From Mobula hypostoma (taxonomy: Eukaryota): a stretch of DNA of 64,000 nucleotides. The stretch is from the NCBI RefSeq assembly GCF_963921235.1, contig NC_086097.1, positions 104,162,001 through 104,226,000 of the forward strand. Reading direction: 5' to 3'. Numbering within the stretch: the first letter of the stretch is position 1; each line of letters begins with the position of its first letter. This document shows positions 7,861 through 47,004 of this stretch, in pieces. The notes under the pieces are model-generated. The model did not search any database. It worked only from the letters and a program-made list of their open reading frames with translations, and was not told the origin of the DNA. The position numbers and the translations under genes were made by a program.

Positions 7861-8342
7861 CGATAGATTTTCACTTTCTGAACAGGAAAATCCACTTCAA
7901 AAGTATAACTGTAATTTGTATTTTAAAACTAAATTCATGTTGTCTGGTTTAAAAAAAACCTGAAGTTTTTCTGCTGGCTACTTTTATTCATGTTGAATTA
8001 ATTCTTCGTTCTGATACAGCAGGGTAGGTAATATATTGTTTCCATGATATGTGGGAGCAGTTGGAGACCACAGTGAACCTTAGCAGTTACGGTTGTATTA
8101 AATGACTGCAGTGGCAAGGGGGGAAAGACTCAAAAAAAAAAAAAGCAAGCAAGCAGCTAATCCTGGAGTATTTTCTGTGTGTATTGGTAGATCAGGCTGC
8201 ATCCAAGTCGAGAGAGTTCATGTTGCAGGTCAGTTCTAATACAAACTGAAAAGGCTGGTCTAGTATTAATGATATGTGAGCAACACACATCAAAGTTGCT
8301 GGTGAACGCAGCAGGCCAGGCAGCATCTCTAGGAAGAGGTAC

Positions 8343-8378
8343 AGTCGACGTTTCAGGCCGAGACCCTTCGTCAGGACT
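8343..8378 (-). ncRNA. Minimal type I hammerhead ribozyme motif (PLE-associated)
   Basis: Minus strand reads AGTC-CTGACGA-AGG gtctcgg CCT-GAAA-CGTC-GACT: stem I AGUC/GACU, core CUGANGA, stem II, GAAA, GUC triplet. Confidence 0.8.
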
Positions 8379-8949
8379 AACTGAAGGAAGAGTTAGTAAG
8401 AGATTTGAAAGTGGGAGGGGGAGGGGAGGGGGAGATCCGAAATGATAGGAGAAGACAGGAGGGGCAGGGATGGAGCCAAGAGCTGGACAGGTGATTGGCA
8501 AAGGGGATATGAGAGGATCATGGGACAGGAGGCCCAGGGAGAAAGATGGGGGTGGGGAGGGAACAGAGGATGGGCAAGGGGTATAGTCAGAGGGACAGAG
8601 GGAGAAAAAGGAGAGTGAGAGAAAGAATGTGTGTATAAAAATAAATAATGGATGGGGTACGAGGGGGAGGTGAGGCATAATAGTCCAGATAGCTGTGAGA
8701 GTCAGTAGGCTTATAGTAGAGTGGTGGTCACTGCTGTGAAGCCTCTTCCGGTGATGCCTACACCGAAGAAGTTTAAATCCTCTCTTCGACAGGAGTTCAG
8801 TGAAACCATTTCTCACTGCTCCCCATCTGTAATTTCTTTGGCTCTTCAACTTTTCGACCACATTTTGACTCAGACTGGCTTCTCCTATCATTTCAGATCT
8901 CCCCCTCCCCCTCCCACTTTCAAATCTCTTACTAACTCTTCCTTCAGTT

Positions 8950-8985
8950 AGTCCTGACGAAGGGTCTCGGCCTGAAATGTCGACT
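8950..8985 (+). ncRNA. Minimal hammerhead motif, variant with C>T in helix III
   Basis: AGTC-CTGACGA-AGG gtctcgg CCT-GAAA-TGTC-GACT. Confidence 0.7.
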
Positions 8986-10071
8986 TTACCTCTTCCTAGA
9001 GATGCTGCCTGGCCTGCTGCGTTCACCAGCAACTTTGATGTGTGTTGCTTGAATTTCCAGCATCTGCAGAATTCCTGTTGTTATTAATGATATATGTTGT
9101 ATTTCATGGCATCAAGAAAATATTGTATTATAGTTATTAGTATCATTCTAAGTGAGTGGATTAAAGTGCCAGAAGATTTTTCAAAGGTATTTAGAGGCAT
9201 GACAGTACTAGATAATGAAATGCAGACATTAACTGACCACTTGTTCATTTTCACAGTTGATGAAGAGGACAAAACATTGATAGTACGAAGAGATCTAAAA
9301 ATCAGTCAGAGGAAGAATCATACTGGATTTGCAGTTTAAAAAAAAGGTGAGGAAAAGGATAACCATTGATCATTTTAATTTTAAGTTAATAGCATAATCT
9401 AAGACTGCTCCCAGAGCACAACAAGAAAAGAATGTAAGCTGATCCGAAAATCAGAATAAACTAGAGACTGGTCAATCTGAATAATCTTTCGTCAGTATCA
9501 GTGTGCTCTAGACTTCATTCCAGGTTGGTCCAACTATAGTTTTGAGGGGCCTGCGTACAGTTTTTGTTGCAATGTTTCCGGGGTTAGTAGTGGAAGCAGG
9601 CAGTTTGGTGCAGTTTGAGGCTTTTAGGATAGATGCATAAATATGAATTGAATGGATAGATATGGATGATGCAGAGGAGGAGTTCATTTAGTCCCAACTA
9701 CCATAATATAAAATAAAATACCAGTACCAGACTGTTCCATGCGTGTTCCATTTAGAAAAACTATGCAGATAGCTAGTTTAAGGAGGACAATGTTCACAGG
9801 AGGAAGCCACTTAAAAGTTTGTGCAGATTAAACTTGACAATGCTAGGGGTTTGGTACGTTTATGTTGAGGGTGCTTAGAGTAATTTCTGTGGCCTAGCGC
9901 TGGCTAGGTCCCAAGGGTGCCAAACTTGCAAGTTGCAACCTTTTGCCAAAAACCCTAATATTATTTTCTTAATTATGAACTTTCAGTTCCTATTTTCACT
10001 GGACACTTGGTTCTCTGCTATTTTCTACCAGGTTTGTATCTTAATTGGAGATCCAACATAGAAACAGGTCA

Positions 10072-10217
10072 CAAACAACAGGAATTCTGCAGATGCTGGA
10101 AATTCAAGCAACACACATCAAAGTTGCTGGTGAACGCAGCAGGCCAGGCAGCATCTCTAGGAAGAGATGCAGTCGACGTTTCAGGCCGAGACCCTTCGTC
10201 CTGACGAAGGGTCTCGG
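10072..10217. mobile_element. 146-bp PLE terminal fragment with fold-back end
   Basis: 14-bp TSD ATAGAAACAGGTCA (10058-10071, 10218-10231) and a perfect 15-bp inverted repeat at 10186-10217. Confidence 0.9.
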
Positions 10218-11107
10218 ATAGAAACAGGTCATTTGGTCCACCAAGTCTCCACCAACTATCAAACAATCCTTTTTACATAAATCCTACCTTGACCCATTTT
10301 CTTCTGAGTGATGTATACAAAGCTTTTGTTTAATTCCTCTAATATTTCCTTTATTCATATTATAAGCTCTCTTCCCTGCATGGAAGCTAACTCTCGGTAC
10401 AGGCATTTGTTAGTGAAATTCGTGTTCTTCAGTTCATCAACACAGCCTTCAGATATTTGAGAAAAAGTGTGTTTAATTGAGCCAAACAACCTAGAAAGGG
10501 TCCATCAGAGGATACCCAATCATCAACTGCCCATTTATATTGATCTTATACTTATCCCATTTGAAATCTAGCACGTGTCTATAGGCGGCAGTTATCCATG
10601 CCCTCTGGCCACCTCTGAGACATTGATCATCCATGACTGGTACTTGAGCAGTATTAACAAAGTTATCTCCACGAGTTCTGCAAGCCAGTGTTAGCTTCCT
10701 GAAACAACAGGGGTGGCCTTGAGGCCTAAATTACACTTGATCAGCTTAATGGCAGACCTTGTAGTTCATCGACCTGACACTGGCCATTTGAAACACATGT
10801 GCTATTCTGAGCTGCTCTTTTGAGACTTGATTCAATGTGAACAAAGGCATTCTATAGATGCATACATGAAAGCAATCAAGAACAGACTCGATAGGCTGAA
10901 TGGCCTAATTCCGTTCCAATGTCTTGCGGTCTATGTCATAAGACTGCTTGCTTCACAATTTCAAACAAACTGCACATCCATTGTGGAGACCATTCTCCTC
11001 ATTGAGCTACTTCAACAATGTTTATTATCTGGTGTTGGTGTGTTCTTGCTATTTCACATCTTTTCTTGTATACCCTCTTGCAGACAACTTCCTGGGACTT
11101 TACTGTA

Positions 11108-16770: not shown

Positions 16771-17518
16771 TCTTAGCCACATGCTGTGGAAATACACACA
16801 GGTTCTCTTTTCCAAATTGTGAATAAAAGGCATTGGGTTCATTGGGGAGTGAAGTATCACTACCATTTATGCTGTTAGGTTTCATCTTAAAGGAAGAAAT
16901 GGCATGCAAACCCTGCACAGCTGACGGGCATCCAATTGTGTCAGTAACTTCACACACAGAATTACCTTTTTGCTTTTGTGATGACCTTTCATATGTCTTA
17001 CTTGGATTACTATCAGTTTCAGAATCATTGGTCTTGAACGTTATGGTTGAAGGTTCAGCAGCTGTTCACCTTCCCCACCCAGAAGGAGCATGAGATAACC
17101 ATGCACCTGTGGGACCCACGTGCCCATTGTAGACGTCCTCATCTTTCTGGCTTGTTTTGTTGAGGGAGCTTGGCTTTCCAGTATTTGCAGATTTTCTCTT
17201 GTTAGTGACTCACCATTCTTGATGATTTGCTGCTAAAGGATTCCAGGCTCGTCATTCCTGCTTCTATGCATGTCAAAGACATCAGTCAAACCCACCAAGG
17301 ACATCAAGGCATTGAAAATTATCATCTAAGAGCAAAGGAATCCATGTGGTGTTCTGATTTGAACACATAGCTGGGAGATTATGTAAAACAGTGTGAAGCA
17401 TGAAGAAAACTACACAGAAGCCATGCTGAACCTCTCTGTCCCACGAAATCCCAGGATTTCCATGGCAAATTGCAGACAGAGACATTTTCGAGCTGAAAAG
17501 AGACAAATATCTTCTCAC

Positions 17519-19278
17519 AACCAAGAGAAAATCTACAGCTGTAGGAAATCCAAGCAGTGTGCACAAAATGCTGGAGGAACTCAGCAGGCCAGGAAAGGAG
17601 TACAGTAGATATTTCTGACAGGAGAGGACCGAAGGCCATGGAAGAAAGAAAAGGGAGAGGAGCACCAGAGGGAGCTGATTGTCAGGCAAGGTGAGAGAGG
17701 GAAATGGGAATGGTGGGGGGGGGAACATTACCAGAAGTTTGAGAAATTGATGTTCATGCCATCAGGTTGGAGGCTACCCAGATGGAATATAAGGTATTGC
17801 TCCTCCAACCTGAGTGTGGCATCAAAGAGAGAGTAGGGGAGGCTATAGACTGGCATGTCAGAATGGGAAGTGGAATTAAAATGCGTGGCCATTGGGAGAT
17901 GCTGTTTCTTCTGGTGCTCAGCAAAGTGGTTTCCCAATCTGCATCAGGTCTCACTGATATTCAGGAGGCCACACTGGAAGCACCAGACATAGTCAATGAC
18001 CCCAACAGACTCTCAGGTGAGGTGTCACCTCACCTGGAAGGGCTGTTTGGGTCCTGAATGGTAGTGAGGGAAGAAGTGTTGCAAGTGTAGCACTTTTCCG
18101 CTTGTAAGGATGAGTTCCAAGAGGGAGATTAGTGGGGAGGGACAAATGGGCAAAGGAGTCACATAGGGAGTGATCCCTGCAGAAAGTTGGGGGGTGGAGG
18201 GAAAGATGTGCTTGGTAGTGAGATCCAATTGGAGATGGCGGAAGGTGTAGAGAATTATGTGCTGGACACGGAGGCTGGTGGGGTGGTAGGTGAGGACAAG
18301 AGGTACACTATCCATGGTGGGGTGGCGGGAGGATGGGGTGAGGGCAGATGTGCATGAAATGGAAGAGATGTGGTTGAGGGCAACATTGATGGTGGAGGAA
18401 GGGAAGCCCCTTTCTTTGAAGGAGGAGGACATCTGATTAGTTCTAGAATGGAAAGCCTCATCCTGAAAGCAGATGCAATGGAGGCAGAGGAATTGAGAGA
18501 AAGGGATGGCATTTTTGTAAGTAACAGGGTGGGAAGTGGTATAGTCCAGATGGCTGTGAGAGTCAGTGGGTTTACAATAGAAGTTAGTAGATAAGCTGTC
18601 TCCAGAGATAGAAAGATTGAGAAAGGGGAAAGTGGTGTTGGAAATGGATCAGGTAAATTTGAGGGCAGGGTGGAAGTTGGAGGCAAAGTGGATGAAGTCA
18701 GTGAGTTCAGGAAGCAGTACCTGTGCAATCGTTGATGTAGGATAGGAAAAGTTGGGGACTGATACCAGTGTCGTTTTAGAACATAGACTGTTCCACATAG
18801 CCAACAAAGAGGTAGGTATAGCTAGAACCCATGACTACACCTTTTGTTTGAAGGAAAATTATTGAGAGTGAGGACAAGTTTTACAAGACAAAGGAGAGTG
18901 GTTGTGGGGTGGAACTAGTTGGATTTGGTGTCCAGAAAGAAACGGAGAGCTTTGAGGCCCTCCTGATGGGGGATGGAGGGTATATAGCATCTGGGCATCC
19001 ATAGTGGGGGCCAGGGAACTTGAAATCTTTGAAAAGATCAAGAGCGTGTGAAGTGACATGGGTGTAGGTAGGAAGGGACTGAACCAGGAGGAATAAAACT
19101 GAGTCAAGATATACAGATGCAGGTTCAGTGGGGCAGAAACAATGGGTCTACCTGAACAGGTAGGTTTGTGGATCTTGGGTAGGAGGTAGAACTGGGAGGT
19201 GGGGGGTGAGGGAACTATGAGGTTGGTGGCAGTGGATGAGAGATCCCTGCAGTTAATAAGATCGGTGATGGTGTACTT
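17519..19278 (-). mobile_element. Penelope-like element, degenerate RT plus GIY-YIG endonuclease
   Basis: MSSSFKERGFP...VPLVLTYHP and HFNSTSH...RLEEQYLIFHLGSLQPDGMNINFSNF peptides; TTCTCAC on both flanks. Confidence 0.88.
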
Positions 19279-28636: not shown

Positions 28637-29672
28637 CATAGAAACATAGAAAATAGGTGCAGGAGTAGGCCATTCGGCCCTTCGAGCCTGCACCGCCATT
28701 TTTTATGATCATGGCTGATCATCCAACTCAGAACCCTGCCCCAGCCTTCCCTCCATACCCCCTGACCCCCGTAGCCACAAGGGCCATATCTAACTCCCTC
28801 TTAAATATAGCCAATGAACTGGCCTCAACTGTTTCCTGTGGCAGAGAATTCCACAGATTCACCACTCTCTGTGTGAAGAAGTTTTTCCTAATCTCGGTCC
28901 TAAAAGGCTTCCCCTTTATCCTCAAACTGTGGCCCCTCGTTCTGGACTTCCCCAACATCGGGAACAGTCTTCCTGCATCTAGCCTGTCCAATCCCTTTAG
29001 GATTTTATACGTTTCAATCAGATCCCCCCGCAATCTTCTAAATTCCAACGAGTACAAGCCCAGTTCATCCAGTCTTTCTTCATATGAAAGTCCTGCCATC
29101 CCAGGAATCAATCTGGTGAACCTTCTTTGTACTCCCTCTATGGCAAGGATTCCTTTCCTCGGATTAGGGGACCAAAACTGCACACAATACTCCAGGTGTG
29201 GTCTCACCAAGGCCTTGTACAACTGCAGTAGTGTCTCCCTGCTCCTGTACTCGAATCCTCTCGCTATAAATGCCAGCATACCATTCGCCTTTTTCACCGC
29301 CTGCTGTACCTGCATGCCCACTTTCAATGACTGGTGTATAATGACACCCAGGTCTCGTTGCACCTCCCCTTTTCCTAATCGGCCACTATTCACATAATAA
29401 TCTGTTTTCCTATTTTTGCCACCAAAGTGGATAACTTCACATTTATCCACATTAAATTGCATCTGCCATGAATTTGCCCATTCACCCAACCTATCCAAGT
29501 CACCCTGCATCCTCTTAGCATCCTCCTCACAGTTAACACTGCCACCCAGCTTCGTGTCATCCGCAAACTTGGAGATGCTGCATTTAATTCCCTCATCCAA
29601 GTCATTAATATATATATTGTAAACAACTGGGGTCCCAGCACTGAGCCTTGCGGTACCCCACTAGTCACCGCC
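28637..29672 (-). mobile_element. Young 5'-truncated CR1 LINE, same subfamily as 112-1640
   Basis: Open 290-aa RT C-terminal frame (28728-29600) nearly identical to the 119-1543 protein; CATAGAAA tail. Confidence 0.95.
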
Positions 29673-41952: not shown

Positions 41953-42056
41953 AACAAACAACAGGAATTCTGCAGATGCTGGAAATTCAAGCAACACACA
42001 TAAAAGTTGCTGGTGAACGCAGCAGGCCAGGCAGCATCTCTAGGAAGAGGTGCAGT
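41953..42056 (-). mobile_element. PLE terminal fragment truncated at the hammerhead
   Basis: Same AACAACAGGAATTCTGCAGATGCTGG... terminus as at 10072 and 46579. Confidence 0.85.
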
Positions 42057-44469: not shown

Positions 44470-46094
44470 ATTGTGATCACTTGCTTAAAAGTGTTCCCTT
44501 CCACAAACTTATGTCACCTGCCCTGTCTCATTCCCCAACAGTGGATCAAATGTCACAGACTTTGTCATTGGAACTTCAAAGTACTGATTAAGAACACATT
44601 TGACAAACTCTATCCCATCTAGTCCTTTTACAGTATGGAAGTCTCAGTCAATGTGTAGAAAGTTAAAATCACCTACCATAACAACCTATGTTTCTTGCAA
44701 CAGATCTGTTGGCTTTGAGGCCTCAAGGCTGCAGGTTACAGATTATAAACTGCACCCCCAGCATTTCATGTGTGAAGTTGGGGAATAGCAGCAATTACAG
44801 AATTTTGGAATTCCACTCTGGAAACTGCAGTTGATACTTTGACAATTAAATTTATCCACCTGAGACTTAAGATGTTTCTAACCAAAGCAATTAATTAGAA
44901 GTAGCAGTTGTATGGAGAAGGTAACAATATGCACTCCTGGAATGCGGCAACAGGTGTGCATTGCTGAACAACCTGTTCGGTTGAAGATGCCATAGATTGC
45001 AGATACTATCTGTGTGAAGAACTAGTGACACCTGTGGAGGGAAATGAATTGTAGACATCTGAAGTTGAAAGGTCCTGATAGAATTCCATCCAAAACCTTG
45101 TTGTGTCATTTTTTTCTCCAAGATGCTGCTTGATCTACTGAGTTCCTCCAGATTGTTTGACCCCTCTTCCTTTGTCCCCAGTTCAGCTCAACATTGTTGC
45201 TTCTCCGATCCTTTGTTGTTCTCCTTTAGGTTACATTGCATTGAACAGATGTGTATACTCCCTTTCATTGTAGGTTTCATTTTGTTCAGTGCTGACCACC
45301 CCTGTTTGGAGATTTATGATTAGCCTTCAACTGCCTTAGCTCATTTGTCATGTGGCACTTGCTGTGCTTGCCTGATTTGAACCGCCGATAACTTGTTTAT
45401 GCAGGTTTGAAGTGGGATTTTATTTGTATTTTGCTCAAAGCTTATGACAAATACTGAAGCAATCAGTTTTGCAGTAGTCAGGGGAGTGGGAAGAAACTTC
45501 TTGTCAAAGATCTTTCAGAATAAAGAAATAACATCTGTACCATAAGGAGTGAACAGCTTGCATTTCTGTTTCTTACAGCTTTAAAATATTTCAATATTTA
45601 GTGCATTGTAATATAAGAAGTGTAATTCTAATAGTTTAATTAGAATTAAGTCTGTTCCATTTAATACATAATGCAAATAAATTCAAGATTGTCAGGCATT
45701 TGACACTTTTTAAATCTTAGTTAACGAGAAAGATTAAATGAGTTGTGAAGAAAATGTGCTGCTTTAGATCAAAAATATTGCAAGTAAAGTTTGGATTGGA
45801 AGATAACAAATGAAACAATCTGTTAAATTAATGTATTTCAGTTTTTTTTAAGTTTGAAGTTTTTGAAGAGGTGACCGAAAGTGCTTCTGAGGGCAGCCTG
45901 ATAAATGTGGTCTATGTGGACTTCAGCACGGCCTTTGACAAGTTACCACGTAATAGGCTGGTCCGGAAGGTTAGATCACATGGAATTCAGGACAAGATAG
46001 GCAATTGGATACAAAATTGACTCAATGATAGGAGACAGAGGGTGGTGGTAGATGCTTGTTTTTCAGAATGAAGTCCTGTGACCAGTGTCATGCT

Positions 46095-46295
46095 CAAACA
46101 AGAGAAAATCTGCAGCTGCTGGAAATCCAAGTAACACACACAAAACGCTGGAGAAACTCAGCAGGCTAGGCAGCACCTATCGAAAAGAGTAAAGTCAATG
46201 TTTCGGACTGAAGGGTCTTGGTCTGGAATGTCGACTTTACTCTTTTCTATAAATGCTACCTGGCCTGCAGAGTTCCTCCAGCATTTTGTGTGTGT
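46095..46295. mobile_element. 201-bp palindromic PLE-derived element (second PLE subfamily)
   Basis: 16-bp TSD TGACCAGTGTCATGCT (46079-46094, 46296-46311); arms are imperfect inverted copies. Confidence 0.88.
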
Positions 46296-46578
46296 TGACC
46301 AGTGTCATGCTGTTGGATTTGGCACTGGGTCCAATACTATTCATCTATATCAGCAATTTGGATGAGAATGCAGATGGCATGGTCAGTAAATTTGTAGATG
46401 ACGCTAAAATTGGTGGTGTCCTGAATGTTGAAGAAGGTAATCTTGATTAACTGTGGAATTGTTAACTGTAGAGAATCAAACTTTAGAGTTTAATTCAGGT
46501 AAATGTGAGATGTTGCATTTTGGTAAGACAGACCAAAGGATTGGTTAGTAGATGGTAGCAAGGGATGCAGGTATGTAA

Positions 46579-47004
46579 ACAACAGGAATTCTGCAGATGC
46601 TGGAAATTCAAGCAACACACATCAAAATTGCTGGTGAACGCAGCAGGCCAGGCAGCATCTCTAGGAAGAGGTACAGTCGACGTTTCAGGCCGAGACCCTT
46701 CGTCAGGACTAACTGAAGGAAGAGTTAGTAAGAGATTTGAATGTGGGAGGGGGCGGGGGAGATCCAAAATGATAGGAGAAGACAGGAGGGGGAGGGATGG
46801 AGCCAAGAGCTGGACAGGTGATTGGCAAAGGGGATATGAGAGGATCATGGGACAGGAGGTCTGGGGAGAAAGACGGGGGTGGGGGGGAACCCAGAGGATG
46901 GGCAAGGGGTATAGTCAGAGGGACAGAGGGAGAAAAAGGAGAGTGAGAGAAAGAATGTGTGTATAAAAATAAATAATGGATGGGATACGAGGGGGAAGTG
47001 GGGC
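46579..47004 (-). mobile_element. PLE terminal repeat (about 430 bp)
   Basis: Nearly identical to 8279-8680; GGTATGTAA on both flanks. Confidence 0.88.
46675..46710 (-). ncRNA. Minimal type I hammerhead ribozyme motif
   Basis: Identical to 8343-8378: AGTC-CTGACGA-AGG gtctcgg CCT-GAAA-CGTC-GACT. Confidence 0.8.

Follow-up and report, generated by a model that had tools for sequence, protein, structure and literature searches.

Main findings

We found that the 146-bp palindromic stub at positions 10072–10217 of the window (the whole stretch of 64,000 nucleotides of Mobula hypostoma DNA that was analysed) is a real, ordinary and dead insertion of a Penelope-like element (PLE) with a known architecture. 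In our preferred reading, to which we assign a probability of about two in three, it is a head-to-head insertion in which two cDNAs, one primed by each strand of a staggered target cut, were copied from one short RNA, ran off its end and were joined via microhomology. A map of insertion ends across the family, the make-up of the recurrent junction and copies that record template jumps bear on this reading and on its alternatives.

The 146-bp insertion and its parent element

The insertion is bounded by identical 14-bp repeats, outside which the bases differ on both sides. Its right end forms a perfect 15-bp stem (10186–10200 paired with 10203–10217) around a CT centre, the next pair being a G/A mismatch; the centre corresponds to C3-U4 of the CUGACGA core of a hammerhead ribozyme, read on the plus strand, with some 25 nt between it and the predicted cut site. 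A preliminary description of this DNA had reported a perfect 14-bp target site duplication (TSD), the 15-bp stem, the CT centre and a strand switch inside the core, and all were as described; its recognition of a PLE terminus was likewise borne out by the identity of the long arm to parent-type copies (Table 1). Neither strand of the stub holds a complete ribozyme, and the part present at 10175–10200 is without the stem I 5' strand, C3 and U4. We also considered whether the TSD might complete a hammerhead on the plus strand, and rejected this, as stems I and II are unable to pair. A contig from a second organism (run X6, about 97% identity) spans the hairpin, the right TSD and the flank, with 16 differing letters over 10180–10796, none of them listed in 10180–10277; it reaches only 21 letters left of the centre, the bridging rule being 31 letters. 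This coverage argues against an assembly artefact. No contig bridging an empty target site was found among the runs aligned to the locus. When TSD lengths were tabulated for the family, the mode was 14 nt (37 of 117 TSDs of at least 9 nt), and the intact TSD of modal length suggests that the stub represents a primary event.

On sequence grounds, we assign the parent to the young EN+ Penelope-like elements with reverse transcriptase (RT) and GIY-YIG domains and a Neptune-type linker. A 36-nt motif from its 3' end has 30,109 exact matches in the genome. The open frame of 641 aa in copy L156 matched RVT_1 (E-value 9e-5) and GIY-YIG (E-value 6e-4), both below the curated Pfam cut-offs, in the order RT then C-terminal GIY-YIG; a DKG motif is visible, and a CX4CX2C Zn-finger-like linker, a feature of the Neptune clade, lies ahead of the GIY-YIG region. 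Partial tandems forming pLTRs were present in L172 and L179, with a unit of about 3.5 kb, and in 46 of 70 copies whose tail runs on into the ORF. The hammerhead was read from 46675–46712 (minus strand), where the core boxes, an extra base after A9, a palindromic CG at 15.2/16.2 and a 4-bp Helix I together make up a minimal type I motif; in most young copies, the partner of G10.1 is U in place of C. An Rfam search gave no hammerhead at gathering level and, by E-value, chance matches only, and minimum-energy folding of the motif gave a structure other than a hammerhead (z −0.56). Immediately 5' of stem I (46709–46730, minus strand) there are a branch-point-like TACTAAC, pyrimidines and two AG dinucleotides; this arrangement resembles the intron end at Helix I of D. 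virilis Penelope (PMC4209133).

Element positions are numbered from the first A of the tail motif (window position 10074) and rise toward the 5' end of the element. On this sense-strand map, the predicted cut site falls at 102/101, core C3-A9 at 129–123 and the stem I 5' strand at 130–133.

Table 1. Coordinates of the insertion, its parts and related copies in the window.
Feature	Position	Strand	Remarks
Left TSD copy	10058–10071		14 bp, the family mode
Long arm (PLE pLTR 3' end, element positions about −1 to 127)	10072–10200	sense on −	95–96% identity to parent-type copies at 46577 and 9082
One-sided "tail", on one arm only	10072–10109	−	Placed by second-arm starts; loose ends 10072–10073 and 10106–10109 in independent runs
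Predicted hammerhead cut site GUC^	10174–10175	−	Motif read from sequence; strand switch not here; no end enrichment
3' part of minimal hammerhead (G5-A9, stem II, GAAA, stem III)	10175–10200	−	Placed by sequence
GTC microhomology common to both arms	10198–10200	+	From the parent's imperfect palindrome GTC-AG-GAC
CT centre (C3-U4)	10201–10202	+	AG instead in about half of sister copies
Short arm (element positions 127 to 113 in sense)	10203–10217	+	15 nt, shortest of 53 exact-junction copies
Right TSD copy	10218–10231		14 bp; GAAAC in register with element sequence expected beyond the short arm
Two-arm copy	8279–9082		Tail-bearing arm apparently jumps to about 160 nt downstream of the tail (by eye against L179)
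Single-arm stub	41954–42056	−	Ends at position 100, one base short of the cut-RNA end (101)
Older-subfamily two-arm insertion	46095–46296		79% identity; asymmetric junction; 15-bp TSD 46080–46094 / 46297–46311
Parent-type 5'-truncated copy with complete hammerhead motif	46575–47004	−	Core 46706–46700; cut site 46679/46678

Two further copies, placed at 41953–42056 and 46095–46295 in the preliminary description, had been said to stop or invert at the ribozyme as well. The former does end near the cut site, but no TSD was found for it (best shared word 6 nt); the latter is indeed a two-arm insertion with a TSD, but it belongs to an older subfamily and has a different, asymmetric junction. Inverted-pair ends of an older subfamily (74–81% identity to the young family) also occur at 17168–17593. 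A different repeat is present at 662–1634 and 28637–29615, in copies 97–98% identical, oppositely oriented and 27 kb apart.

Insertion arms often end at the 5' edge of the hammerhead

The end map comprises 184 copies sampled by their 3' end alone, two pairs of which have a common insertion. Its first part draws on the first 100 matches listed for contig C1, of which 98 were kept (in the other two the exact motif was absent from the fetched stretch), and its second part comprises 86 of 90 loci obtained with three flank-prefixed patterns after removal of 4 duplicates; the map covers young, tail-bearing copies on contigs C1 and C2 only. Inner-end positions are uncertain by 1–3 nt owing to microhomology, and enrichment is given relative to the rate over positions 46–95.

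Head-to-head two-arm copies accounted for 97 of the 184, single-arm copies for 73, and 14 ran past the fetched DNA. Inner ends were concentrated at 121–138, the interval of the core and the stem I 5' strand (90 of 267 ends, an 11.9-fold excess), and most strongly at 131–133 (33 ends, 27-fold); smaller clusters were seen at 146–148 (9 ends) and 159–161 (5 ends). The hotspot at 121–138 was 10-fold with first arms alone, and single-arm copies contributed 20 ends to it. That breakpoints would be non-uniform near the ribozyme had thus been foreseen correctly in the preliminary description. Its proposal that the ribozyme site defines the ends was not supported for the GUC cut site: the interval 96–106 contained 7 of the 267 inner ends against 6.1 expected (1.1-fold), none of them from single-arm copies. 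At 99–104 there was a slight excess of 2.1-fold (p 0.05), made up of 7 ends that all belong to two-arm copies.

In 100 of the 184 insertions the arms did not exceed 150 nt, and the lengths of the two arms were coupled: both were within this limit in 61 copies, neither in 31 and only one in 5 (Fisher p 1e-19). Arms start at two places, the tail and a second site about 35 nt inside; the second arm started at 28–47 in 72 of the 85 two-arm copies with a readable outer end, and at 28–45 in 14 of 19 pairs of long arms. In 53 of the 97 two-arm copies, the second arm extended deeper inward than the first. Single-arm ends at 118–161 (n=34) had no shared upstream exon beyond them, and many adjoined the TSD directly. 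At the starts of short arms, a general correspondence of the target with the RNA was not established, with 5 of 10 positions matching at 10072–10217 and 1–7 of 10 elsewhere in a comparison confounded by subfamily differences. Long, near-spacer-free palindromes also persist in this genome, such as the head-to-head arms of 0.6–2.3 kb and about 97% identity in L156, L157 and L081. In L041, a fold-back copy precedes short direct repeats, whose unit of about 80 nt bears the ribozyme.

The junction appears to be remade

The exact junction of the stub had 404 matches in the genome, a neighbouring junction 198 and the uninterrupted parent 40,818, so that the exact junction amounts to about 1% of the read-through count; 3 of the 184 copies sampled by their 3' end carried it. 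Read relative to the arm with the tail, the centre was CT in 13, AG in 16 and complex in one of the first 30 loci with the exact junction. Among 53 exact-junction copies parsed for their anatomy, the short arm varied from 15 to 95 nt (83–95 nt in 38), and the TSD was 13–15 nt long in 38. Alleles at four diagnostic sites, compared between the arms of 55 copies, agreed in 149 of 155 comparisons, the chance expectation being 45–71%, and the exact junction was found on at least 10 haplotypes with the arms matching within each copy. Identity of arm alleles could partly reflect gene conversion between arms. In L036 the arms of one insertion came from different subfamilies at three diagnostic sites. 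Where both ends lay at 115–150, 20 distinct junction strings were seen among 23 parsable pairs, the exact junction of the stub being one of the 20.

Because the junction lies on at least 10 haplotypes, with matching alleles in the two arms and a CT:AG ratio of 13:16, it looks remade at each insertion; these sequence comparisons suggest that it was created anew many times rather than inherited from one source. The recurrence of identical junctions anticipated in the preliminary description was therefore found, in 404 copies, but the propagating family that it was thought to indicate was not, given the haplotypes and the two centres. A miniature inverted-repeat transposable element (MITE) was rejected on the same grounds and for its short arm of variable length, as opposed to the fixed ends, uniform length and single master of a MITE. 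A non-LTR retrozyme was also rejected, the stub being a single inverted unit with a split motif as opposed to direct tandems of complete hammerheads.

Template jumps point to short linear RNAs

The tail continues into the ORF in 396 copies, and we examined 70 of these; 46 of the 70 were of the full-length type, 21 contained jumps and 3 were other. In a jump copy, the sequence passes from the tail to a stop, restarts 69–744 nt downstream of the tail and traverses the tail again. The first stop was at 133–153 in 12 of the 21 jump copies, and none of the 21 stopped at 101. The identical base was reused as a stop in six of them (positions 133, 134, 135, 144, 153 and 87); in L301, for example, the stop at 135 was used on four passes. 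A stop that varies between copies, yet repeats within a copy, is the pattern expected if a linear RNA physically ends there at its 5' side. This observation, pointing to short linear RNAs that would start 133–153 nt above the tail as templates, is accompanied by initiator-consensus +1 bases at 133, 148 and 161, which match the three clusters of ends, and by 14 of 31 ends at 139–200 falling 0–2 nt short of an initiator site (p 4e-5, post hoc). The 5' ends of the short RNAs plausibly lie at these initiator motifs, although position 148 also fits a branch point (TACTAAC in the subfamily found in the window, then pyrimidines and AG). In a search confined to contigs, no run listed as containing the sequence was on record as RNA, and four aligned runs gave no start or end calls. 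RNAs with these 5' ends extend across an uncleaved ribozyme into the ORF, and would therefore derive from the upstream pLTR. The upstream pLTR ended at 132–154 in only 4 of the 44 full-length copies that could be measured; long insertions would thus come mostly from RNAs starting further up, and a single fixed start is insufficient for the family.

L301 (G000:C2:157815900-157818600) is a direct tandem of a 310-nt unit that begins 175 nt downstream of the tail and reaches position 135; the tandem was entered at position 36 and left at 58. It looks like the product of repeated end-to-end jumping or of a small RNA circle, and a tandem of this type is a possible route to retrozyme-like arrays without cutting at the ribozyme site. 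In L271, L272, L276 and L292, as well as at 8728–8876 of the window, jumps landed 156–164 nt downstream of the tail, which suggests that the RNA has a favoured 3' end or that a third start site exists.

A model of insertion and its alternatives

Parent identity, TSD, two-arm anatomy, end distribution, coupling of alleles and lengths, and junction counts are observed, and from them we infer the remaining steps as follows. A target cut staggered by about 14 nt would leave two 3' ends; one would prime at the end of the tail, and the second in most cases some 35 nt further in. At 10072–10217, the long arm would be the first cDNA, begun at the end of the tail, and the short arm the second, primed unusually far inside; this abnormal priming at 113 was perhaps aided by a 5-nt in-register match between target and RNA, which is suggestive only. 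The template would be a linear, uncleaved RNA that starts 133–153 nt above the tail in the upstream pLTR, probably at a transcription start, and continues into the ORF. Both cDNAs would run off the 5' end of this RNA at the front edge of the hammerhead. Those ending at 132–133 would finish in GTC-AG-GAC, two such ends may pair and be joined via the 3-base microhomology, and which strand retains the two central bases would be a toss-up, giving CT or AG. GTC-AG-GAC self-pairs at 6 of 8 positions, which would explain why this junction is the commonest of those counted and why CT and AG are evenly split. The ribozyme would then mark the junction because stem I begins at the RNA start and its sequence supplies the microhomology, and not through cleavage. 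The use of one RNA per insertion is not universal, as L036 demonstrates. For the family as a whole, we lean slightly toward the combined account, in which two-strand priming on a 14-nt stagger with one RNA is joined by run-off, in about half of the insertions, from uncleaved transcripts starting at the first hammerhead base, and by jumps from 5' to 3' ends.

A peak at 132–133 that coincides with the stem I 5' strand might also arise if RT stalled at the 5' edge of a folded or protein-bound hammerhead on an ordinary long RNA and the stalled ends were joined. One subfamily has a predicted 7-bp hairpin immediately upstream, and the scarcity of full-length copies beginning at the peak fits as well. 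However, a stall would be expected on entering the structure, and ends show no excess near position 98, where this would happen; the 40,818 arms noted above read through, independent stalls would not couple the arms in the 61/5/31 pattern, and the repeated stop of jump copies differs between molecules over the six positions listed above. We consider stalling unlikely. Fold-back and self-priming of a single cDNA, or later loss of the centre from a longer palindrome, would account for arms that are nearly always allele-identical, and we judge it improbable all the same: snap-back of a cDNA ending GTC-AG-GAC could yield the AG-centred class, and some junctions do pair positions 130–133 with 98–101 (L114), yet snap-back of the tail strand yields AG, while CT is found in the 10072–10217 copy and in 13 of 29. 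The first arm always bears the tail and the second is deeper in 53 of 97, so that neither simply copies the other; the hotspot is also seen in single-arm copies, and the two subfamilies in L036 do not fit a single cDNA.

The branch-point-like motif, pyrimidines and AG immediately 5' of stem I raise the question of splicing, with an intron whose end directly precedes stem I (acceptor AG at 136 or 132, branch A at 148) and lariat or mis-spliced RNAs as templates. The Penelope intron of D. virilis ends at the 5' end of Helix I according to the available text of PMC4209133, and ends become fewer after 148. Since no common upstream exon followed the 34 single-arm ends at 118–161, ends at 153 and 159–161 lie above the branch point, and no splice joint was seen among the 15 joints listed (166 further joints lie beyond these), we regard splicing as very unlikely. 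The idea that ribozyme cleavage sets the ends and that the palindromes propagate as a MITE-like family seems to us the most improbable explanation of all. The 404 identical junctions, the single-arm stub ending one base from the cut site and the weak excess at 99–104 are what it can draw upon; against them stand the lack of excess at 96–106 and of any stop at 101 in the 21 jump copies, at least 10 haplotypes, two centres, short arms of 15–95 nt, a neighbouring junction with 198 copies, and a copy at 10072–10217 that is without a complete ribozyme on either strand.

Relation to known systems and implications

In LINE-1 twin priming, both target strands prime and the cDNAs join via microhomology, the arms copying different parts of the RNA; in contrast, the arms of the Mobula family copy the same RNA stretch, hence the palindrome. 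The preliminary description had put the stub forward as a candidate for an under-described system, which the literature does not support as regards its architecture: an adjacent inverted 5'-truncated copy, a one-sided tail of 30–40 bp and palindromes at the junction have been published for EN+ PLEs (PMC8557442, PMC3846280). Like these units, the Mobula family has an ORF with RT then GIY-YIG, partial tandems, a head-to-head copy, a tail on one arm, junction palindromes and TSDs. Its TSDs are 13–15 nt long versus 8–10 in the Adineta examples of PMC3846280 and, as compared with published EN+ PLEs to the extent of their available descriptions, the arms are no longer than 150 nt in 100 of 184 insertions and the mapped ends peak at stem I. 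Palindromes of Adineta Penelope were interpreted in 2013 as products of self-priming (PMC3846280), whereas the Mobula data favour two primed cDNAs. Among the titles and abstract openings searched, the subscription literature being mostly outside reach, we found no publication that locates insertion ends at the ribozyme's 5' edge; the architecture is already published, and the base-level end map was not found in print.

In vitro, the protein of Poseidon PAc from Anolis cuts and extends both target strands, starts at two neighbouring internal sites that delimit the tail, and does not depend on ribozyme cleavage (PMC11167929). The available text of the same study reports no RNA reads ending at the cut site and leaves later insertion steps unvalidated; the genomic copies of Mobula, by comparison, record run-off points, end joining and template jumps. 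The CX4CX2C linker of the Mobula ORF is of Neptune type according to PMC8557442, as opposed to the Poseidon PAc. The pLTR of Penelope contains an internal promoter (PMC2377424). Minimal type I hammerheads of metazoan PLEs have been described, with opposite-strand pairs 100–700 bp apart noted among them (PMC4209133), and the Mobula motif resembles these hammerheads in its core boxes, extra base after A9, CG at 15.2/16.2 and 4-bp Helix I. It differs in the G10.1-U pair of most young copies, and the stub is without a complete motif. Non-LTR retrozymes, as described in the accessible part of bioRxiv 10.64898/2026.07.22.740005, are similarly short, non-coding, PLE-derived and hammerhead-bearing, but they are direct tandems with a complete ribozyme per unit, whereas the Mobula stub is an inverted one-off.

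The origin of the inverted repeats, tails and tandems of PLEs and the role of the hammerhead remain open questions (PMC8557442, PMC11167929). If the combined account is true, it would explain the inverted repeat, the tail and small tandems in vivo without ribozyme cleavage, and the genome would hold tens of thousands of frozen insertion intermediates. The family gives base-level predictions: two priming sites, a stagger of 13–15 nt, RNA 5' ends at 133, 148 and 161, a cut site that is unused and a centre that is a toss-up, and the existing in vitro system could test these predictions. For annotators, palindromes of this kind should not be taken for MITEs. The stub itself is inert, and its family carries a useful mechanistic record of PLE insertion.
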